Counted from the first letter of the stretch, positions 11,759 through 21,299 are shown. The stretch is 64,000 nt of DNA from Candidatus Thorarchaeota archaeon (GCA_048882045.1 JBHLRZ010000017.1:1-64000); one strand, 5' to 3'. Notes: generated by a model from the sequence alone, not told the origin. Translations and numbers: made by a program.

Positions 11759-12952
11759 CTAGAAGAATGATCCGGGTGGTTCTGTCACCGTGCTTGGACC
11801 CTTCTTCTTGGATGTCTGCTTCAGTGACAGCACCTCAACGAGCTTGTATTCTTTGGAGCCCATTCCCAATTTCTCTGCATAGTCGACAGTAATGTACGGA
11901 TCTTTCAAAGGACCATTGATCCTCTGGAATGGATGGAGTCCAGGTTCATTGTGCAATCGTATAAACGGAGGAACCATACTCTCTATCAGTTCCTGCTGCC
12001 CGATCAAGTCGAGACTCGCTTGCTCAATAGCTACAATATCTCTGCTTCCAAGAACACCGATGTCATTCAGAATATTAGGTTGACCCATGCCCCAACAGTC
12101 ACAAAATGGTGTAATATCCATCAGAAAGCTGAGGAAGAATCGTTTGTTCTTATCGAATGTCTTGAGGATCTCATTTGCTCCGATTGCCATGAGTTCTTGG
12201 AAGAGAGAGAAGTTCGCTTGTTTTATCTGGAGACATCCCACATCTTTGTCTGCTTCAATACAGTCCATGCACTGAATACACATACCGAATGCTACAGTCA
12301 ATTTGTGTTTCTCTTCATCGTACTTGATGACTTCCTCTTTACATGCCTTGACCAGTTTCTTTGCATGTTCAGGTGTGCATTTGTCAGCGTCCCAATACGG
12401 GATTGACTGCTCAATCCCATGGATTTTATTCCATCGCGAAGGTCCGTGATAACCTCCCAGTGCAATGTTCTTGATGGCTCCTCCGAATCCACAGGAATTG
12501 TGACCCTTGACATGCGTGAGGTCTATCAAAACATCAGCGTCATAGAGCACTCCTCCTATCTTCAGAGTGTCGACATTGTGGAAATTCACATTGAAGTCAT
12601 AGGTGTATCCATCCTTTACACCAGCCACTGGGATGATAGGACATCCACAAGTTTCCTGAGTGTAACCTCGTTCTACAGCATTGTAAACTGCTGTGGGATT
12701 ATCTGTTATGAATGGATAACCACCCACCTTCTTCACAGCCTGAACGATCCTTCTGACAAAGAAGACAGGTACTGTCTGATAACCGTCATTGAAACCAAGG
12801 TGCATCTTGATAGCGACCTTGTCCTTCTTTTCAATCGTCTTGAAATCCAGTTTCTTAACGACTTCGTCAACCTTGGCTGCAAAGGCAGCCCACCTGCTAG
12901 TGTTGCCTTGGATGACTGATCCATAGTATACTTTCGGGGGTCCTGCGCTCAT
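11759..12952 (-). CDS. DUF362 Fe-S cluster protein
   Basis: 'KVAIKMHLG', 'THVKGH...GFGGAIKNIALG', 'CIQCMDC', 'ITPFCDC', 'DIVAIEQASLDL'. Confidence 0.88.
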   Translation of the reverse strand: MSAGPPKVYYGSVIQGNTSRWAAFAAKVDEVVKKLDFKTIEKKDKVAIKMHLGFNDGYQTVPVFFVRRIVQAVKKVGGYPFITDNPTAVYNAVERGYTQETCGCPIIPVAGVKDGYTYDFNVNFHNVDTLKIGGVLYDADVLIDLTHVKGHNSCGFGGAIKNIALGGYHGPSRWNKIHGIEQSIPYWDADKCTPEHAKKLVKACKEEVIKYDEEKHKLTVAFGMCIQCMDCIEADKDVGCLQIKQANFSLFQELMAIGANEILKTFDKNKRFFLSFLMDITPFCDCWGMGQPNILNDIGVLGSRDIVAIEQASLDLIGQQELIESMVPPFIRLHNEPGLHPFQRINGPLKDPYITVDYAEKLGMGSKEYKLVEVLSLKQTSKKKGPSTVTEPPGSFF

Positions 12953-13006
12953 ATTGTGACAGTCAGGTTTCCCTAGTTAAAATCGTTACTGAGCAAGTAA
13001 ATTGCA

Positions 13007-13075
13007 GAGAAAGGATGCAACAATAAAGAAAGACCATTAGGGATGATGCGTTGAACATTAGTTGCATCCCTTCTC
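13007..13075 (-). other. Long intergenic hairpin (15-bp stem)
   Basis: On the minus strand GAGAAGGGAUGCAAC pairs with GUUGCAUCCUUUCUC with one G-U (an A-C mismatch on plus). Confidence 0.5.
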
Positions 13076-13214
13076 ATGTCCACCACACAATCGATATCCG
13101 ACCGACTGCCCCGTGGGGGAACTACATCTATCAAGACTCTCCAATTGAATAAAAGGAGGCTGAACAACGTAAGCATTGTGTCAATGTTGGCACAACAACG
13201 CGTGCATCGAAAGA

Positions 13215-13748
13215 CTATGTCATCATATCCATACCGAACTGTCTCCGGATGAGACTCCCTAATCCAAGTCCAACCAGGAAATAAAACCCATAGAAACTGA
13301 GTCCGAAGCCACCTGCAGTTGGAGTTCCTATCATCCCAGTCAGAAATGGTAGTACATCCTGGATGTTGAATGGAATTACTGCAACAATGCTATTACCATA
13401 AATTGCATTCATCAATCCCCAGAATAGGATGAGTGGAATGTAGAAGTAACACATTGGCTTGCATCTGGCTGTCATCATTGAGCTCTGGAGTCTCATGATC
13501 CGACCTTGGTCCTCTTGGACCTGCTGCAGCAGGATGGGATCCATTGACTTTCTTGCTTCATTGAATCTTGCTTGCCATTCCTTGACTGCTGCCATGTCTT
13601 CCTTCATCTTCTCCATGTCTGAGAATCGTCTGGTCATCCAGATGGACACTAATACGATTCCTAAGGCGACGAGTGCAACAAATACGGTTGACCATGGCAT
13701 GACAGAAACAGGTGCAAAGATAGCTATGAAATCGCTCCAGATGTCCAT
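13215..13748 (-). CDS. DUF106 / EMC3-TMCO1-like (Oxa1 superfamily) membrane protein
   Basis: TM1, cytoplasmic coiled coil, 'CKPMCYFYIP', 'YGFYFL'. Start refined to MDIWSDF. Confidence 0.85.
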   Translation of the reverse strand: MDIWSDFIAIFAPVSVMPWSTVFVALVALGIVLVSIWMTRRFSDMEKMKEDMAAVKEWQARFNEARKSMDPILLQQVQEDQGRIMRLQSSMMTARCKPMCYFYIPLILFWGLMNAIYGNSIVAVIPFNIQDVLPFLTGMIGTPTAGGFGLSFYGFYFLVGLGLGSLIRRQFGMDMMT

Positions 13749-13863
13749 ATGTTTTCTCCAATCTGTCGAAACAACCTGTGTGCATTTTAAGGGTTGTCTT
13801 TCACTCCCTGGTCTGACAGTATAACAACAGCCTATAACTGTCACAAACATAGTCGCCCAGGGC

Positions 13864-14290
13864 AATACTCAACATGCGGCGTATACGCCATAGGTGTTAG
13901 AAGTCACCAATGTAAACATGCTTCTGTAAGGCTCATGTGCACAAATAATTGCAACATCACTGTAATGCAAATGGTCTCGGAAGGGGCTTATATTGGCTAA
14001 ACCAATACCCAGTAAACGCATGCATTTATGTAATGTACACGTTGGTTTTGTTTCGAATGATTTCGATATCATCGTATTGTAAACGTTACATAAATTCGCG
14101 CCAATCATAGCTCCAATAATACAAGTTTAGAAATCTCTCATTCTAAAGTGTCTTTGTATGAGCCCCTAATACTCTCTAATGCAATAGAAGCTGCCAAAAT
14201 GCATGATTTACCGCATTTTGGAAGTATTCTCAAAAAGGAAAAACGCGCGAAAAGCATGGGTGTACATATACAAACCCTATGTGCTTATAT
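13864..14290 (+). ncRNA. Candidate large structured ncRNA or leader (unknown family)
   Basis: Nested helices 13864-79/14211-28, 13912-21/14201-11, 13982-92/14157-67, 14024-36/14083-95 and 14126-32/14141-47. G-U pairs favour the + strand. Confidence 0.5.
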
Positions 14291-14342
14291 ATTGGATAAC
14301 GTGTACTTTCTCTGTCGAGACCGCCGGGAGGGTACGACGCAC

Positions 14343-14612
14343 ATGATGATGTTTAGCCGAATGCTTAGACGACAAGGATTCTATCGAGTTAAAAACCAGA
14401 CCGATCCTGTCTACATGAAACACGGTGTTGGTCTTGGTGGAATATACGTGCGAATTGAACATAAGAAAGCCCTGATACAAGTTCGGGACCTCGGAATTGA
14501 AGAAGAGTTCACCAAGGTCAAGAAGCTTGAGAATTTTATCAATGAACTTGAAGACACGGCATATCGTGAGAAGTGCTTTATTGTCCACCGAATGCGTGGG
14601 ACCGGTTCATAG
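14343..14612 (+). CDS. Small basic alpha/beta protein, possibly HicA/dsRBD-like fold
   Basis: GGAGGG upstream of the ATG. Pattern 'MLRRQGFYRV...YMKH...IYVRI'. Followed by a terminator hairpin. Confidence 0.65.
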   Translation: MMMFSRMLRRQGFYRVKNQTDPVYMKHGVGLGGIYVRIEHKKALIQVRDLGIEEEFTKVKKLENFINELEDTAYREKCFIVHRMRGTGS

Positions 14613-14644
14613 TTAATCTCCTTTCTTCTCCTCTTGCGAATCTT

Positions 14645-14668
14645 AAAGCCCAGCTCTGCTGGGCTTTT
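14645..14668 (+). terminator. GC-rich hairpin followed by T run
   Basis: AAAGCCCAGC-tct-GCTGGGCTTT(T), preceded by a pyrimidine-rich tract. Confidence 0.6.
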
Positions 14669-14728
14669 CCCCATATCCTAGTAAGCTATCTTGATAAGTC
14701 ATCCAGAAGATAATCATGCTGAGCTGAA

Positions 14729-16108
14729 TTGACAGATATTGCTCTCAGTCTACAGAATGCCATATCTGAAGGAGACTATGCAACAAGTTCGCGTTTCATT
14801 GATTGGACGATGAAAAAGGGTGCACTCATCGATCTTGTATCTGGGCTTGAAGCATTAGAAGAAGCTACATCACACACAACTCTAGAACTGAGAGACCATG
14901 TTTTCTACTTCCTTGGAATGTGGGATGTCTATTTCGCAGTACAGATGTCATCAACTGATGTGCTGAAGCTCTTGAGCATAAATGGTGTCCAAGAACGAGC
15001 TCAGGATTTCATGGTCCACTATATCAATAACCTTCTTGACCGCAAAGACCCTAGGTTTGACCAATTTTGCGTAAATATCCAGACAGTAAGCAGAGGACAT
15101 TATGCCATTCTTGTCCCCTCGATATTGGAACAAAGGACAGAAGAACTTCTCAACTGTGAAATCCAGTATCTTGATGAACCACCCCGGTTATACTGTACAG
15201 CGGACTTATTGAACACATATTATGGGCAGAAAATTGTAGCTGCGACTCATGGACAAAGGTCTTTTGATATAGTGGTCGATGAAAAGCAATTTCGGATTAT
15301 ACGAGAGAGTCTTGAATCTACAGGACTTGACATTGAAACAATGCTTGAGGAAATTGATTCAGATAATTGGGATGAATATGTAAGAAGCAGAAGAAATACT
15401 AGAATCAAGAAATATACGAGGGATGAAAAGGAGTCTCATCATGAGTTAGCAAGTGAACTGGCTGAGCTTCACAGGGTGAAATCTGCTCGCTCCAACATCT
15501 ATTCTGATGACTTCAATCAGCAAATCGCTGCTCTTCAAACAATAGATTCATCGAAGACTCAGCTATGCAATGATGTTCTATCTGACATAGCTATGAATCC
15601 TTCGCACTCACTAAGAAAACGGGCTTTGAATCAGCTAGGCAAGTCAGGTGACTTACTCACGCTTGATTTGCTTGGTGACCTTATGAAAAATGACGCATCG
15701 TCTGCAATAAGAAGGGAGGCAGCCCGTGCGTTTTCCACTCTAAGTTCGAGAGCTGCAGGACTGAAGCAGCTTGCTCCTCTGCCTTCCTCCAAACCACCAT
15801 CCGTTGATGTTTCCAGGATCAATATTGTACTCAACAATCTGATTAGTAGGAGAATGCCCGCGACAATGATCGACGAAGCTCTTCATTCGTTCGCTCTCCA
15901 AGGTGGTCAAGGATCAGGTGAGCTTCTACTGAGGCTGTTTTCGCATCCAGATGAGCGAATACGAGGAAGCATTGTGAGGACTACAAGAACTTTGGATAGA
16001 GAGAGTGCGGCTCCAATAGTCCGTGCAGCACTCCAAGACGAGTCAGTTGAAATTGTCAAGTTGGCTGAGAATGAGCTGGATTCAAGATGGCCTGATGAAG
16101 TCTGGTGA
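14729..16108 (+). CDS. HEAT-repeat (PBS lyase-like) protein
   Basis: C-terminal units 'LRKRALNQLG', 'DASSAIRREAARAF', 'HPDERIRGS', 'ALQDESVEIVKLA'. Confidence 0.75.
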   Translation: MTDIALSLQNAISEGDYATSSRFIDWTMKKGALIDLVSGLEALEEATSHTTLELRDHVFYFLGMWDVYFAVQMSSTDVLKLLSINGVQERAQDFMVHYINNLLDRKDPRFDQFCVNIQTVSRGHYAILVPSILEQRTEELLNCEIQYLDEPPRLYCTADLLNTYYGQKIVAATHGQRSFDIVVDEKQFRIIRESLESTGLDIETMLEEIDSDNWDEYVRSRRNTRIKKYTRDEKESHHELASELAELHRVKSARSNIYSDDFNQQIAALQTIDSSKTQLCNDVLSDIAMNPSHSLRKRALNQLGKSGDLLTLDLLGDLMKNDASSAIRREAARAFSTLSSRAAGLKQLAPLPSSKPPSVDVSRINIVLNNLISRRMPATMIDEALHSFALQGGQGSGELLLRLFSHPDERIRGSIVRTTRTLDRESAAPIVRAALQDESVEIVKLAENELDSRWPDEVW

Positions 16109-16109
16109 A

Positions 16110-16430
16110 AAGCAAAGGGTGACGAAACCGCCAGTCGCTGTCACTGTCGTCAATGCATCAATAGAGGTCTTGGGATTGTCATTACGCAGCCAAGTTGGTT
16201 TTTTAAACCAGCTGCGTTGTATCGTTGAGATTTCTGATTCTGTGATGTCTATTTAGGTCGCTGATGTTCCAGCGATCTCGTCTCTGTTACAAGAGGGCCC
16301 TCCGAACACTGTCCCTTCTGTCCGGAGAGCTCGCTCCACGGTCTTGCGGAAAGGTTGCATTCTACTCTGGAAGTTGACTGTTCGCGGTAGTTGTCTGAAA
16401 CGCGTGAGGAGGAGGAGAATTTTGGTTGCC
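16110..16430 (-). ncRNA. Candidate structured ncRNA (unknown family)
   Basis: 12-bp stem 16297-308/16319-30 with two G-U on minus, hairpins 16258-75 and 16184-217, long-range pairs 16160-65/16248-53 and 16152-57/16356-61. Confidence 0.45.
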
Positions 16431-16446
16431 AACCATATGGTAAGTT

Positions 16447-16528
16447 CCGCGAATTTCGCAACATATCAGATATTGATTGCGTATATCGCAATTCCGATAT
16501 TAAAATATTTGCGATATTCGCATATAAA
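16447..16528. promoter_or_regulatory. Three phased semi-palindromic operators (TTGCG-W5-CGCAA type) next to a minus-strand TATA
   Basis: GCG-N5-CGC at 16449, 16479 and 16511 (spacing 30 and 32 bp). TTTATATG on minus at 16521-16528. Confidence 0.65.
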
Positions 16529-16580
16529 GGAAATGGTATAACCGTCCAAGGAATAGTTCCTAATAGTCTTCATCCCTCAA

Positions 16581-17780
16581 TCATCGACGAATTTTCGATA
16601 CCAAATAGCCGGGTGCGGCTGCCAAAATTGCACTCCTGACTCCTCTGAGACCTGCAAGCATCTCTGCAATAACTCTAGATGACTTATCAGAGTTCATGAA
16701 TGTAGATCCCACAGAGCTAGAACCTGATTCCAAGAACCTCTTCTGTAGCCACAATCCCCACTTGAGGTCTGAACCAAATGCTTTGGTCCACTCTTTCTCA
16801 TACTCGGAGAGGGTCTTAGTTGAGAAGTCACTATCTTTGATACATCTTGCAGCTGTTTCTGCAGCCTTGAGTCCTCCCATCATCGAATAATGAATTCCTT
16901 CCCCTGAGATTGGTGAACAGTGGCATGCGGCATCTCCAGCTAGAAGAATTCGATTTCCGAACGATGGGCTTACAATTCCTGCTAGTGGCATGAGTGCTGC
17001 CTCTTTCTTCGTAATCTCTGCACCTGCGTCCTTTAACTCAGTACTGATTGGTTGAACATCACTGATAAGATAGTCCAGATAATCGAATGTTCTACGACTG
17101 CTCTCTCGGACCTTGTTCACCAGTCCACCTGTACCTACGACCGTTTCTCGGTCTCTTGGGAAATTCCAGGCGTATCCTCTCGGAGAGAACTCGCTCCCAT
17201 AGAAGAAATCGTTAGCGCCAGGTAGGGTATCTTTACACTTCATTTGATACTGAACCGCATACCCTAACTGATTGTTTGGAGGTCTCGGTCGCACAATAGA
17301 TGACCTCTGGCTTGCTGGATTTGTACCACTAGCATCAATGATGAGCTCACTTGAGAGGCTGTCACTCGCATTGTCTTTTGTGAAACGAATAGTACACGAT
17401 TCCTTTGTTGATTCTACCCAGTTGCACTCCGTACTCAGCCATATCTCTCCTGAATCTTGGGACACCTTCTCTAGTAATGCTTTACCGAAGTCCTCCCTGC
17501 TAACGTTTACTCCTACTGGAACTTCGAAATGAACCTCCCTGATGTTGAGGCTTGGAAACTTCATCCGAATAGTCTCAATGGGATATGCACCTGACATACC
17601 TTGAAGGTCGAATTCTTTCAGTGCACGACTTGGAACGTAACCTCCGCATGCTTTGTTGATTCCCGGAGAGGAGTCTCTGCTTACTAACGTGTAGGAGATC
17701 TCCAACTCTTCTAGTCGACGGGCTGCAATGAGACCAGCAGGTCCAGCACCTATAATGATAACTTCAGTATCAACGGTCAT
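16581..17780 (-). CDS. Geranylgeranyl reductase family flavoprotein
   Basis: GAGPAG, 'KACGG', 'GYAWNFP', 'LAGDAA...SPISGEGIHYSM'. Confidence 0.88.
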   Translation of the reverse strand: MTVDTEVIIIGAGPAGLIAARRLEELEISYTLVSRDSSPGINKACGGYVPSRALKEFDLQGMSGAYPIETIRMKFPSLNIREVHFEVPVGVNVSREDFGKALLEKVSQDSGEIWLSTECNWVESTKESCTIRFTKDNASDSLSSELIIDASGTNPASQRSSIVRPRPPNNQLGYAVQYQMKCKDTLPGANDFFYGSEFSPRGYAWNFPRDRETVVGTGGLVNKVRESSRRTFDYLDYLISDVQPISTELKDAGAEITKKEAALMPLAGIVSPSFGNRILLAGDAACHCSPISGEGIHYSMMGGLKAAETAARCIKDSDFSTKTLSEYEKEWTKAFGSDLKWGLWLQKRFLESGSSSVGSTFMNSDKSSRVIAEMLAGLRGVRSAILAAAPGYLVSKIRR

Positions 17781-17843
17781 TGGAATACTTCTATGGTTAC
17801 ATGACGTACTAATAATCTTGGTTAGAAATGTGATTAATGATGT

Positions 17844-18392
17844 CTATGTCTCATCATTACGTGGTTCAACAGGTATCGAGTAACCACTTAGTTTTCTCAC
17901 ATTCATCATTTCTTTAGCAAGCCACTCAAAATTCTCCATGAAATCTAATCCTGGTCCATAATCTGGTCCTGTTCCAACATCCTTCTTCCGCAGTTCTTTG
18001 ATAATGGTTTCGAACTTTAGCCACATCATGATAATTCTGAGCCCTAGCATTCGTTGAACCATTTTTACATCCACTATATTCTCCTTCACAAGTATCCCTA
18101 AACCGTCATAGATACTCCATAAGGACATTCTTTTTGCTGCTTCATCCGGATTTGTCCAGGGCCCGTATTTTTGCATATAGTCTTCCATATCTTCCCATTG
18201 AGTCGACATTAGATCCCAGAATCTTTTGTAGCTCTCAGAATCGACGCTCGTTTGATAGAGATTCATGAACATTTCTGTTTGTCTTGATTTTCGATTTCCT
18301 CTCACCGTAATCACATAGTATGAGAATCCTGCTAGAACTCCAAAGACAGTCACAATGTCTCCCAACAGTTGAAGGATTTCTAAATCTTGCAT
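17844..18392 (-). CDS. DUF4760-like protein with N-terminal TM helix
   Basis: N-terminal hydrophobic helix and 'YDGLGILVKENIVD...ENFEWLA' pattern. Confidence 0.6.
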   Translation of the reverse strand: MQDLEILQLLGDIVTVFGVLAGFSYYVITVRGNRKSRQTEMFMNLYQTSVDSESYKRFWDLMSTQWEDMEDYMQKYGPWTNPDEAAKRMSLWSIYDGLGILVKENIVDVKMVQRMLGLRIIMMWLKFETIIKELRKKDVGTGPDYGPGLDFMENFEWLAKEMMNVRKLSGYSIPVEPRNDET

Positions 18393-18559
18393 TTCGAGTC
18401 TCCAGAATAGAATTCGCTCCATTTGTTATAAGTGTCAAGAAATGGGTTAAATCTCAACAATTCATAGAGGAAGCTTCGAACTAGGGAAACTTCCCATAAT
18501 TCGATTTGATGCAATACTAAATGTACGTTTTCACAATTTGGATGCTCACAAATAGAACT

Positions 18560-18780
18560 GAAAAATGTACGTGTACCAGTCCGCGTCGCCACGCACTCAA
18601 GGTTTACTCCGGGCCAGCTCGGAGTCCTTCACTGGACCGGTACACGCTTAATCGCGATTTCCGATTGAGTAAACGCTTAATCCCGTGGAGTACACCTTTG
18701 CGAAGGAGGAGAGAGGATGAACAGAGAGAGACGCATCCTCAATCGGATTTCGAGAAACCCTAACTCCGGCCAGTGTCTTT
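18560..18780. ncRNA. Candidate GC-rich structured RNA element (strand uncertain, minus favoured)
   Basis: Stems 18570-82/18634-46, 18606-11/18620-25, 18660-69/18738-47 and 18713-19/18734-40. Ends in ACA plus T5 on minus. Confidence 0.45.
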
Positions 18781-18955
18781 CTTCTGTTTCTGGACCTATG
18801 AAACAGAACGTTTACTGTACATCCATACTGTACACTCTTGTATATTGGACCTTGTAATATCCAGAGTAGTATATTCTAACCACTCTTCTCGGAAGTTTAA
18901 TTACCTACATCTAGATTTAGTTTCTATTAGATCGCGTTGTAGGAGGCCAATATAC

Positions 18956-19156
18956 ATGATTAGAATATTGAAACTAGCCATCGCAATAGCAACCATTGCA
19001 CTAGGCTTGGTGGTTCTTTCTGTCACGCTTCCCTCCTCACCATTTTCAGCAACTGCTACTGGCATTCCAAGCATTGCAATAATTGCCATGGTGGGCCTTG
19101 GAGTATTCATATTCGTGAGTATAGTTTATGTTTATACTTTCAAATCAAAGCGTTGA
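18956..19156 (+). CDS. Small two-TM membrane protein
   Basis: AGGAGG upstream of ATG 18956, two hydrophobic helices. Confidence 0.6.
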   Translation: MIRILKLAIAIATIALGLVVLSVTLPSSPFSATATGIPSIAIIAMVGLGVFIFVSIVYVYTFKSKR

Positions 19157-19212
19157 GCGCCATCAGTAACTGCTTTCCAGTATGAAGATCTTCTTAGTCT
19201 GAGCTCGGTGTA

Positions 19213-19824
19213 TTATTCGATTATCTGTTCTCCTCCAGAGTCATCAGGCTGCGGCGAAAAAATGAAAACTTTCTCGCTGTATAGTAACGCGTTCGCATAA
19301 CACAATAGAACTAGTACATTCAGCAATGTGAGTATGTTTGGAGAACTATATAGGACTGTGGGCATGATCATTAATGACAAACCCCCTAGGAGTCCGAAAA
19401 TACCAAGGGTTGCGAATGTGTTTCCTGACCGAGATGTTTCTTCGGGACGGATACTGTAGCCCCACCCGTTGCCAAGCAATGAACCAAACAACGCAAATCC
19501 AATAGCATGAAACTGATATTGTGTAAAAATGCTGGAGGTGAAGTTGTTCCACTCAATTAGGTCTACTCCTGATAATCCATGGAATGGCGAACCTGAAAAT
19601 GCAACAAAATACCCGACAATATTCATGCAAATGTATCCAGTCAGAGTTCCCAGGATAGCACCAGCTATCCCATAGGATTTGAAAAGGTTCCGAAAGGTGA
19701 TGTTTCTTTGTCTTGCTTTCATCCCAAGGTAAGCGGCAACGAGCAGTCCAGCACCAGCCCCTAGTACAATTGCATCCATCAAGGTGATTCTGATAATGGC
19801 CGTGTAGTATCCGCTAAGATTCAT
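19213..19824 (-). CDS. Multi-pass membrane protein
   Basis: About five Gly-rich hydrophobic segments. Confidence 0.7.
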   Translation of the reverse strand: MNLSGYYTAIIRITLMDAIVLGAGAGLLVAAYLGMKARQRNITFRNLFKSYGIAGAILGTLTGYICMNIVGYFVAFSGSPFHGLSGVDLIEWNNFTSSIFTQYQFHAIGFALFGSLLGNGWGYSIRPEETSRSGNTFATLGIFGLLGGLSLMIMPTVLYSSPNILTLLNVLVLLCYANALLYSEKVFIFSPQPDDSGGEQIIE

Positions 19825-20015
19825 AATGTCCCCCAATAAGGATGCATACACGTTGTCTAATAAGCAGTCTTATTCTTGCTCTATAAAAGAGATTGAGAAT
19901 TAGTATGGCTCGAGATTGCCTGTTTAATGATCAATTGATGCATTTTTCAAGATTTTTTCCATCAATGAAGTAATTAACTATAGTTATTATATACTTATTT
20001 TATCCCTCAATACTT

Positions 20016-20890
20016 GACGATTTTTCGAAAGGATTACTTCAAATAATTTTCTATTATATCTGACATTCGTTTATATTTATATTTACCTCTTATTGGTACA
20101 ATTTGTACCTGATTGAGGAATTATAAGTCACTAATTTTCTATAGATAGGTGTCTAATGTTTTCAACTTGTGTAGATGGTTTCATATGACAGATCCCCTGA
20201 TGCAGGTTTTTTTTGAAACAGGAAATTTCTCTCATACCCGTTTTCTGTATCATGAAGTCTATCGACTAAAAAATATACTAAAGAAGCAGGGTTTATCACG
20301 CGAAAAGGTAGCAGTACACACATTTTGAGTATGAATGTAGGCCATAACCAGATCTGAAGAAACTATTTATATTTAGAAACCGAATACAGCGATTTAGACG
20401 ATTTCTACTATAGTAGTAGTACATGGTAATAGGAGGAACTATTGGATCGTCTATCAAAGTTATTGGCGACAGTAAGATTCATTCATAACTTCCTCTGAGA
20501 AAGAGAAACTACTCAAAGATAGAGGAAGTTGAGGGGAAATATAGCAATTTGTCTATAATATTAAGTATATGTTAAACCTTTCGAAAAATGGACACTCAGG
20601 TTTTTCAACCTGTCGATTTTTCGAATAGCTGGAAAACTAAAACAGATCATTTGGAAACCTGTGAGCATCGCAAGTAGTTCCAGTCTTTTCTTTGATGCGA
20701 AAAACAGATTCTTACCCTGTTAATAATCCATTCGACGAAAGCTTGTAAGGGCTAAATAGATACCATTAACCTAGTCTATAAGATACAACATGGTAAGGCC
20801 TAGAATTCCGAAAGAGCCCAATCACATATCATTTATATCCCGAGTCTCAGTATCGACATGTACACATTGCATCGAACGGGACTGAGAGCA
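20016..20890 (+). ncRNA. Candidate very large structured ncRNA or leader (unknown family)
   Basis: TATA-like TTATATAC at 19987-94. Nested helices 20020-32/20577-89, 20115-24/20485-95, 20127-35/20462-70, 20150-56/20394-400, 20169-82/20359-72 (four G-U) and 20189-94/20351-56. Further 3' hairpins. Confidence 0.5.
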
Positions 20891-20936
20891 GTTGCTATCG
20901 CCCCGAAACAGACACGAAACAAGGTAGGCAACACAG

Positions 20937-21299
20937 ATGGTCACGATCTTCATAGTTGATGATGAGGTAATCCTGCATCGATTGTATAAAGACGTGTTCT
21001 CCATCAAAGGCCATGAGGTCGTTGCTGACGCGTATGACGGAGCAGAGGCTATAGAAAAATTCTCAGCCTTTGATGTGAAACCTGAAGTCATCATTCTCGA
21101 TCATCGCATGCCAAACAAAGATGGGATGCAGACCATGCGAGAGATTCTAGATATTGATTCTTCAGCCAAGATAGTTTTCATCAGCGCAGATGCCAATGTG
21201 AGGGAGCAAGCAATGAGCAATGGCGCTGCGAGCTTTGGTTTGAAACCAGTCACGATTCGTCACATGCTTGACCTTGTTGAGAGCGCAGTTTCGGACTAA
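20937..21299 (+). CDS. Stand-alone CheY-like response regulator
   Basis: 'IVDDE', phosphoacceptor 'ILDHRMP', 'ISA', 'LKPV'. Confidence 0.92.
   Translation: MVTIFIVDDEVILHRLYKDVFSIKGHEVVADAYDGAEAIEKFSAFDVKPEVIILDHRMPNKDGMQTMREILDIDSSAKIVFISADANVREQAMSNGAASFGLKPVTIRHMLDLVESAVSD

Follow-up and report, generated by a model that had tools for sequence, protein, structure and literature searches.

The question raised by this locus is whether the long gaps between genes at 13-21 kb of a Candidatus Thorarchaeota contig encode structured RNAs. The DNA analysed (GCA_048882045.1, JBHLRZ010000017.1:1-64000; 64,000 nt, hereafter the window) had been described in a sequence-only reading as carrying a locus of undescribed non-coding RNAs in this region. 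The gaps were examined by sequence comparison among Thorarchaeota relatives, with the genus of the window (g1) represented by 27 genomes. That description stood for gaps 1, 3, and 4, where covariation or strand-specific wobble pairing was found with no Rfam match, and did not stand for gaps 2 and 5, which hold mainly short boxes and promoters and whose proposed giant folds lack compensatory change. On balance, the island appears to be real but mixed, with RNAs in gaps 1, 3, and 4 and chiefly regulatory DNA in gaps 2 and 5. The element in gap 4 is very probably a functional structured RNA. The gaps, with positions counted from the first nucleotide of the window, are as follows.

12953-13214: gap 1, 262 nt.
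About 13866-14342: gap 2, 477-590 nt, the length being set by the start of the EMC3-like gene; the gene for P89, a small conserved protein, starts at 14343.
16109-16580: gap 3, 472 nt, between convergent HEAT-repeat and reductase genes.
18423-18956: gap 4, 534 nt.
19852-20936: gap 5, 1085 nt, a divergent region.

Within gap 4, the following features were delineated.

18566-18820, minus strand: structured RNA, a predicted transcript of about 255 nt; covariance model R1 spans 18560-18838 (279 nt) and includes the promoter-proximal box.
18840-18860 (minus-sense 18860-18840), minus strand: promoter-like element ATATTACAAGG-N4-AATATAC, invariant in the genus.
18569-18647, minus strand: terminal domain, in which helix 8 (18569-18582 with 18634-18647, 14 bp) encloses a hairpin with an invariant AGCUGGCC loop.
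18704-18716, minus strand: pyrimidine tract CCUCUCUCCUCCU, mostly unpaired and conserved in alignments A3 and A9.

The evidence for this RNA was drawn from alignments A3 and A4 and from model R1, which recovered more divergent copies. The stretch 18560-18876 retains 67-88% identity across the genus, and the flanking DUF4760 and membrane open reading frames (ORFs) do not align. Compensatory change was found at 22 of the 54 pairs among 17 distinct sequences, versus 11.9 ± 2 in shuffles, none of which (0 of 500) reached the observed count. Paired cells amounted to 89.7% versus about 30% when partners were slid by 1-3 columns, and these slid controls gave 3-10 compensatory pairs. The ratio of G-U to A-C was 52:4 in the minus sense, whereas the plus sense gave 28:17 at best; plus-strand A-C mismatches read as G-U on the minus strand. 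Compensatory change was located in several hairpins, including positions of several helices outside the boxes described below. The outer 8 bp of the terminal helix (GCGUGUAC/GUACACGC) do not vary among 40 sequences, and the three pairs that follow them covary in the same set (CG21/UA15/UG2/GC1, GC19/AU9/GU5, and GC14/AU11/CG6/GU4). The predicted start of the RNA lies about 24 nt past the promoter-like element, which gives the length of about 255 nt, and a U5 tail, encoded by the plus-strand A5 run at 18561-18565, follows the terminal helix. A pyrimidine run of at least 9 nt occurs in 35 of 40 loci, and the tract resembles an anti-Shine-Dalgarno sequence. A pairing of box 4 with the GGAGUAAAC segment was dropped, being consistent in only 6 of 11 sequences.

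Model R1 detected one copy of the gap-4 RNA in 22 of the 27 genus genomes and gave weak matches in two other genera; the same architecture, at a score under the R1 threshold, was seen at locus L054 (contig CP070658.1), in a complete genome from a different genus. Because the full-length model missed most homologs from other genera, a core model, R3, was built from the CU tract, three boxes, and the terminal helix. It recovered the RNA in 25 of the 27 g1 genomes and in five further genera (g25, g29, g22, g19, and g20) at E<1e-5; a sample of 124 genomes covering 26 other Asgard families contained no match. As modelled, the RNA family is confined to one Thorarchaeota family, in which it covers at least six genera. 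The promoter motif, in the form TATTACAAGG-N4-5-ATATAC, is recognisable upstream of the RNA in all six.

The position of the RNA relative to a geranylgeranyl-reductase-family gene is shared by most loci. The features concerned are given below.

16581-17780, minus strand: geranylgeranyl-reductase-family gene (Pfam GGR_cat and FAD_binding_3), the gene conserved downstream of the gap-4 RNA.
17809-17823, minus strand: promoter-like TATA AACCAAGATTATTAG of the reductase gene, about 30 nt before its ATG at 17780 and kept in the spacers of relatives.
17844-18422, minus strand: DUF4760 gene (ORF listing, Pfam, NCBIfam).

In 36 of 40 loci the reductase gene lies downstream of the RNA and co-oriented with it, and in relatives without the DUF4760 insertion the end of the RNA lies 50-130 nt, typically 90-130 nt, from the reductase ATG. 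The encoded protein scores 159.1 on TIGR02032 versus a cut-off of 158.8. Genome G000 has eight paralogs of this family with 25-30% mutual identity, of which only the copy at 16581-17780 is linked to the RNA. In genome G051, from another genus, two copies of the RNA core were observed on contigs C93 and C71 (loci L133 and L148), each followed by a reductase gene; these copies may reflect duplication, strain heterogeneity, or bin contamination.

Such an arrangement could also be explained if the gap-4 element, and likewise that of gap 1, were a cis-acting 5' leader made from the upstream promoter, which would sense a ligand or protein and control read-through into, or translation of, the reductase (or DUF362) gene. 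The co-orientation and short distance in 36 of 40 loci and six genera are in line with this, as are the attenuator-like U-run after the terminal helix and the CU tract, which could mask a ribosome-binding site. Set against it is a conserved TATA-like element about 30 nt before the ATG of each gene, between RNA and gene. In relatives, the RNA-to-reductase spacer contains a box, GCGTTTAC, followed 16 nt on by TATA-like GATTATTAGG, which stands some 30 nt ahead of the ATG. The DUF4760 gene lies between RNA and reductase only in the genome of the window and its nearest relative, and despite this insertion the TATA-like element has been kept with the reductase gene, for which reason a separate RNA gene was favoured over a leader. 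Archaeal termination, moreover, needs no hairpin. From the comparison of these spacers, the gap-4 RNA is probably a transcript of its own, and the leader explanation is on the unlikely side.

The element in gap 1 was defined from alignments A5 and A8 and model R2, with the following features.

12990-13125, minus strand: structured element with a helix of 14-15 bp (13007-13021 with 13061-13075) and 5' hairpins at about 13085-13125.
13146-13154, minus strand: TATA-like CTTTTATTCA, of which TTTTAT is invariant in 22 genomes, about 25 nt upstream of the element.
12976-12992, minus strand: likely DUF362 promoter TCAGTAAC-GTTTTAAC, conserved in 22 genomes.
11759-12952, minus strand: DUF362 gene (ORF listing, Pfam, NCBIfam).

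Gap 1 is conserved over its full length in the genus, and model R2 matched the element in 22 of the 27 genus genomes, with no match elsewhere in the class. Among 22 sequences, 98.7% of the helix cells are paired, and the one-sided changes in the helix yield only wobble pairs in the minus sense (24 G-U cells, none A-C); the G-U:A-C ratio of the element is 40:0 in the minus sense, and the alifold energy is -21.0 in that sense versus -12.5. The enclosed loop (CAUCAUCCC...GUCUUUCU) is invariant and duplicates the 3' arm of the helix, so that two alternative pairings are possible (GAGAAAGGAUG), a property that a leader with two folds would share. The likely DUF362 promoter has its centre some 28 nt ahead of the ATG at 12952, a spacing that fits a leaderless messenger RNA, and its U-run could also terminate the gap-1 RNA. 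Since the reductase and DUF362 genes both look leaderless, there would be no Shine-Dalgarno sequence for the CU tract to mask, which counts further against a leader. Gap 1 thus apparently encodes a smaller structured RNA of the minus strand, found genus-wide and situated immediately ahead of the DUF362 promoter. TATA-like boxes had been claimed to precede several of the helices, and those at gap 4 (18840-18860) and gap 1 (13146-13154) were found to be conserved across relatives.

A third candidate RNA was located in gap 3.

16255-16445, minus strand: RNA core with a 13-bp hairpin (16295-16332), a GGGAC loop, and motif CCGCAAAACCGUGGAGC.
16406-16419, minus strand: 5' CU tract (plus-strand GAGGAGGAGGAG).
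16447-16530, no strand assigned: three TTGCG-W5-CGCAA boxes with a TATA-like CCTTTATAT on the minus strand, ahead of the RNA when read in the minus sense.
14729-16108, plus strand: gene for the HEAT-repeat protein (ORF listing, Pfam, NCBIfam).

In alignment A11, 20 pairs were defined, 6 of them compensatory, and the G-U:A-C ratio was 22:1 in the minus sense versus 20:10 in the plus sense. The convergent gap between the HEAT-repeat and reductase genes measures 430-577 nt in 7 genomes, 43-76 nt in others, and more than 1.5 kb in two; the core is present only in the 7 genomes with the gap of 430-577 nt and is absent at 43-76 nt. The TTGCG-W5-CGCAA boxes are conserved without compensation in the 7 genomes, the motif is rare genome-wide, and the box stretch 16447-16530 gives the strongest folding z-score of any window, -5.2. 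Gap 3 therefore apparently contains a smaller minus-strand structured RNA that only some genomes carry, behind three operator-like boxes. It has no downstream gene at all, a further difficulty for an explanation by leaders. As a separate observation, the RNA and its three operator-like boxes have been gained or lost together within the genus. UGUACAGUA might also be read as PUF-like, in connection with the HEAT-repeat protein encoded next to it.

The boxes of gap 4 belong to a motif, AACGT(G/T)TAC, that also occurs in gap 2, where the features are the following.

13215-13865, minus strand: ORF of an EMC3/TMCO1-like membrane protein, true start uncertain (ORF listing, Pfam, NCBIfam).
14012-14310, no strand assigned: array of AACGT(G/T)TAC boxes at 14012(-), 14035(-), 14079(-), 14259(+), and 14300(+).
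14285-14292: TATA TTATATAT, flanked by the boxes at 14259 and 14300.
14343-14612, plus strand: gene for P89 (89 aa; ORF listing and conservation).

The box is scarce in the genome and clustered at this locus. Its 9-mer was observed 31 times genome-wide versus 118 expected, and outside long ORFs it occurs only 4 times, always in gaps 2 and 4; the degenerate 7-mer has a genome density of 0.38 per kb. The densest 300-nt clusters in the 3.6-Mb genome are those of gap 4 (7 boxes) and gap 2 (5), with no more than 3 at any other locus. The region 18570-18830 of gap 4 holds 7 boxes in 260 nt, so that several copies of the motif stand in one RNA, as in a protein sponge. The gap-4 RNA itself contains five to seven (A/G)CGU(G/U)UAC copies, two of which form the invariant base (outer 8 bp) of the terminal helix, and conservation of boxes 2-4 extends over six genera. 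The gap-2 boxes stand at -331, -308, and -264 (minus) and at -84 and -43 (plus) from the P89 ATG at 14343; these offsets are fixed in 21 loci, including loci of other genera, across which the sequence between the boxes is hardly alignable by BLAST.

Pairing of the gap-2 boxes with one another was rejected, the G/T position agreeing no more often than expected by chance (15 of 18 would-be pairs in one case, 8 of 19 in another). A fold of about 370 nt was likewise unsupported, since its long-range "stems" proved to consist of repeated short invariant boxes whose changes are uncompensated. Consensus folding of gap 2 is weak, with a modest strand bias; together with the lack of covariation at the G/T position, this indicates that the boxes would act as recognition sites and not as helix arms, and gap 2 appears to fit protein-binding or promoter DNA better than an RNA fold. 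Further invariant motifs of gap 2 (13876-13886 and 14090-14100) were also noted: GCGGCGTATAC, about -465 from the ATG at 14343, is conserved in most genus genomes, and TTTCGCGCC is positionally paired with GGCGCGAAA, about 150 nt away, in most genus genomes, the partner motif not being conserved in other genera.

The start of P89 was placed at the ATG at 14343 on the basis of conservation and of upstream stop codons in relatives; readings of 118 and 154 aa were rejected, and the long ORF 14148-14612 is an over-call. The 100 nt before this ATG comprise the promoter and 5' untranslated region (UTR), with the Shine-Dalgarno sequence GGGAGG about 10 nt ahead of the ATG. Homologs form 57 clusters with 65-96% identity, every named source being Thorarchaeota, and the gene is linked to the reductase gene across genera. 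No Pfam domain was found in P89 at E<=10, and none in its homolog clusters. The AlphaFold2 model (pLDDT, the predicted local distance difference test, 76) consists of a helix, four strands forming a sheet, and a long helix. Searches for relatives gave only chance matches by phmmer against PDB, nothing above 0.84 in the protein atlas, nothing at E<=0.001 by Foldseek against PDB, and, by VIA-align wide, the Mediator Med17 C-terminal domain as top match (Z 8.2) with frataxin-like sandwiches at Z 5-7, all in the noise range; the folds matched were generic alpha/beta sandwiches only. P89 may be guessed to be the box-binding factor from its conservation, the fixed box array before its gene, and the linkage to the reductase.

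From these elements a regulatory circuit was tentatively assembled. One sequence-specific factor would bind the boxes flanking the TATA of the P89 gene, and the same factor would bind the reductase-promoter box as well as those on or around the gap-4 RNA. The RNA would then serve as a decoy or scaffold that sets the level of free factor and so tunes this reductase paralog, and its CU tract could additionally mask Shine-Dalgarno sequences. This circuit is considered possible, with low confidence. A more specific form, in which one Thorarchaeota factor, possibly P89 with a new fold, would read the same 9-nt box both in promoter DNA, of its own gene and of the reductase paralog, and in an RNA of about 255 nt that mimics or titrates the operator, is put forward as a speculation that we judge unlikely.

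Gap 5, next to the response-regulator genes, is composed of the following features; its left-hand neighbours, which separate it from gap 4, are included.

18957-19156, plus strand: small membrane ORF (ORF listing).
19213-19851, minus strand: small membrane ORF (ORF listing).
19973-20033, no strand assigned: block A, a palindrome ATTAACTATAGTTAT and a box TGACGATTTTTCGAAAGG (TCGATTTTTCGAA box), conserved in 13 relatives.
20086-20118, no strand assigned: hairpin CCNN-N5-GGTAC-N5-GTACC-N5-NNGG, whose outer pairs covary (CCTC/GAGG, CCGT/ACGG, CCTT/AAGG).
20235-20345, no strand assigned: block B, about 110 nt, non-coding with little predicted structure, 76-86% identity in about 10 genomes, no reading frame shared by all of these, z about 0.
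20488-20529, no strand assigned: second hairpin, with U-G and C-A intermediates both present.
20577-20600 and 20610-20625, no strand assigned: two TCGA-W5-TCG boxes.
20826-20936, plus strand: promoter TTTATATC (20832-20839) and 5' UTR of the response-regulator operon, conserved in relatives.
From 20937, plus strand: two stand-alone receiver genes of the response-regulator operon (ORF listing, Pfam, NCBIfam).

The left TCGA-W5-TCG box varies (AAAAA, ATAAA, ATTTA, ATATT) beside an invariant supposed partner; the boxes are therefore unpaired, and a giant fold is unsupported. A nested fold of 570-870 nt was rejected, its long-range stems joining box copies with no compensation. Gap 5 consists mainly of short invariant boxes and promoters, and it appears to fit regulatory DNA better. 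The 5' UTR of the response-regulator operon carries a hairpin insertion of 40-60 nt in relatives, and a TATA-like element at 20365-20378 could drive block B on the minus strand.

The gaps might instead hide small protein genes, and three ORFs were considered for this: one of 46 aa behind GGAGG at 18717, one of 47 aa at 20185-20328, and one of 67 aa at 12973-13176. The GGAGG of gap 4 is Shine-Dalgarno-like and stands ahead of a plus-strand ATG, and the gap-5 ORF shows conservation in its C-terminal portion. Indels of 1-2 nt among relatives, however, occur across gap 4 and break the frame of its ORF, which excludes a protein-coding reading there; the gap-5 ORF, which overlaps block B, has stops just upstream of the conserved core in 3 of 13 relatives and lacks a start codon in several others; and conservation in gap 1 tracks the helix and not codons. 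Hidden genes are accordingly a very improbable explanation.

The invariance of so many boxes leads to the opposite proposal, that no gap makes a functional RNA and that all signals lie at the DNA level, as transcription-factor site arrays, palindromic operators, and promoters of a regulatory hub. The invariant boxes keep spacings of 21-23, 31-32, and 41-44 nt and flank TATA elements, three different box types occur in the region, and gaps 2 and 5 show no compensation. Such a hub would not, however, account for compensatory change at helix positions of gap 4 outside the boxes (0 of 500 shuffles; 3-10 pairs when slid versus 22), and the asymmetry of G-U over A-C (40:0, 22:1, and 52:4 in gaps 1, 3, and 4) is unexpected for duplex DNA. 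It had been claimed that non-Watson-Crick positions read as G-U on one strand only; this was confirmed for these three gaps, always on the minus strand, and the second hairpin of gap 5 is mixed. A purely DNA-level explanation of all five gaps is thus quite improbable.

Several points weigh against RNAs in gaps 1, 3, and 4 and the circuit built on them. The gap-4 transcript is a prediction from sequence, and the most conserved parts of the element are invariant boxes, which are unable to covary and are possibly pure DNA sites; the first of them sits between the TATA and the predicted start, as an operator would. The adjacency of RNA and reductase within a syntenic family is partly inherited and not independent. 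Covariation in gap 1 is weak, its 2 compensatory pairs being matched in 138 of 500 shuffles. The gap-3 core has a z of about 0 and is represented by only 7 sequences, because of which it was ranked after gaps 4 and 1. No likeness to a nucleic-acid-binding fold was seen for the P89 model, whose best Z of 8.2 is in the noise range.

The gaps were also examined for length and folding across the window. With a crude ORF cover, the median gap was 53 nt and six gaps exceeded 200 nt, three of them within 13-21 kb, gaps 3 and 4 being masked by spurious ORFs of 80-127 aa; once these were dropped, the long gaps of the window were concentrated at 13-21 kb (five among the longest). The claim of unusually long gaps in this region was borne out, as was that of long helices within them: in 120-nt windows, the lower of the folding z-scores of the two strands, taken against dinucleotide shuffles, averaged -1.0 to -2.1 in gaps versus -0.46 in coding sequence (Mann-Whitney p = 3e-4). 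For whole elements, the z-score was -3.0 in gap 1 (minus strand), with two values each in gap 4 (-2.5 and -3.9) and gap 2 (-2.8 and -2.2); the gap-3 core and block B of gap 5 both scored about 0. A DNA search of 40 relatives showed portions of the gaps to be conserved at least as well as the flanking genes.

No known RNA family accounts for these elements. Rfam cmscan gave no family at gathering over the whole window and none usable at E<=10 over 12900-21000, no riboswitch family was matched, and no transfer RNA (tRNA) was found by ARAGORN, in agreement with the earlier statement that no RNA consensus could be recognised. Divergent known RNAs or mobile remnants were nevertheless considered, namely signal recognition particle (SRP) RNA, RNase P RNA, H/ACA or C/D small RNAs, miniature inverted-repeat transposable elements (MITEs), and omega RNAs. 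ACA follows the gap-4 terminal helix in four relatives (ACA or AAA overall), the lower stem being 14 bp and a pseudouridylation pocket not identified; gap 1 has a weak snoRNA-like match to snoZ163 (E = 4.1, 18 bits versus a gathering score of 39), which is at chance level. No match came near any gathering score. The SRP and RNase P RNAs of genome G000 were located elsewhere, at C11:46113-46423 and C1:75143-75483, so that the gap elements are neither. Each element is single-copy, blastn against the 3.6-Mb assembly giving self-matches only for every gap, and no transposase or TnpB gene lies nearby; these self-only matches, with one copy of the gap-4 and gap-1 RNAs per genome, ruled out a MITE or repeat. 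Kinship with any of these classes is therefore extremely improbable. As a side observation, the SRP RNA (G000, C11:46113-46423) scores 80.5 bits, below the Archaea_SRP gathering score of 96.5, and standard Rfam annotation would therefore miss SRP RNA in this Asgard lineage.

The elements were compared with several known systems. A likeness to OLE, GOLLD, and ROOL had been suggested and was not supported: those RNAs are roughly 600-800 nt long, whereas the elements here are about 130-280 nt (about 255-280 nt in gap 4, 135 nt in gap 1, and 190 nt in gap 3), form separate small genes with one to few domains, and have no Rfam match. What is shared is conservation, structure, and restriction to a lineage, and, for OLE, a tie to membrane proteins that is paralleled here by lipid and membrane gene neighbours. 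Sponge RNAs of the CsrB/RsmZ family and 6S offer a functional analogy, in that many copies of one short invariant motif, partly helical, recur also at the regulated genes; they are bacterial, however, with no relation in sequence or structure, and in the present case the motif also flanks TATA boxes in DNA and the partner is a candidate only. Riboswitch and attenuator leaders are likewise upstream of and co-oriented with a metabolic gene and share the terminal helix with U-run and the alternative pairings of gap 1, but here a TATA stands between RNA and gene, the genes are apparently leaderless, and no aptamer consensus or Rfam match was found. Archaeal operator arrays, for example the triple boxes of Ss-LrpB, may be an analogue of gaps 2, 3, and 5, where boxes of about 9-15 bp, semi-palindromic or repeated, stand at regular spacing beside a TATA; the boxes here have other sequences, there is no neighbouring gene of the Lrp family, and one box type lies inside a covarying RNA.

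In the literature searched, no paper describing these RNAs and no description of family-level regulatory RNAs in Asgard archaea was found, and no Rfam family matches. For the annotation of Thorarchaeota genomes, three new covariance models (R1, R2, and R3) are provided, together with a caution that long AT-rich gaps rich in "nested helices" can be operator arrays and not RNAs. The gap-4 element constitutes a covariation-supported RNA family, tied by position to one reductase paralog and by a rare shared motif to the orphan protein P89, and it bears on the regulation of a lipid-modifying enzyme in uncultured relatives of eukaryotes. If the proposed circuit were true, it would be an archaeal counterpart of decoys of the 6S/CsrB type, acting on a transcription factor and governing the saturation of membrane isoprenoids.

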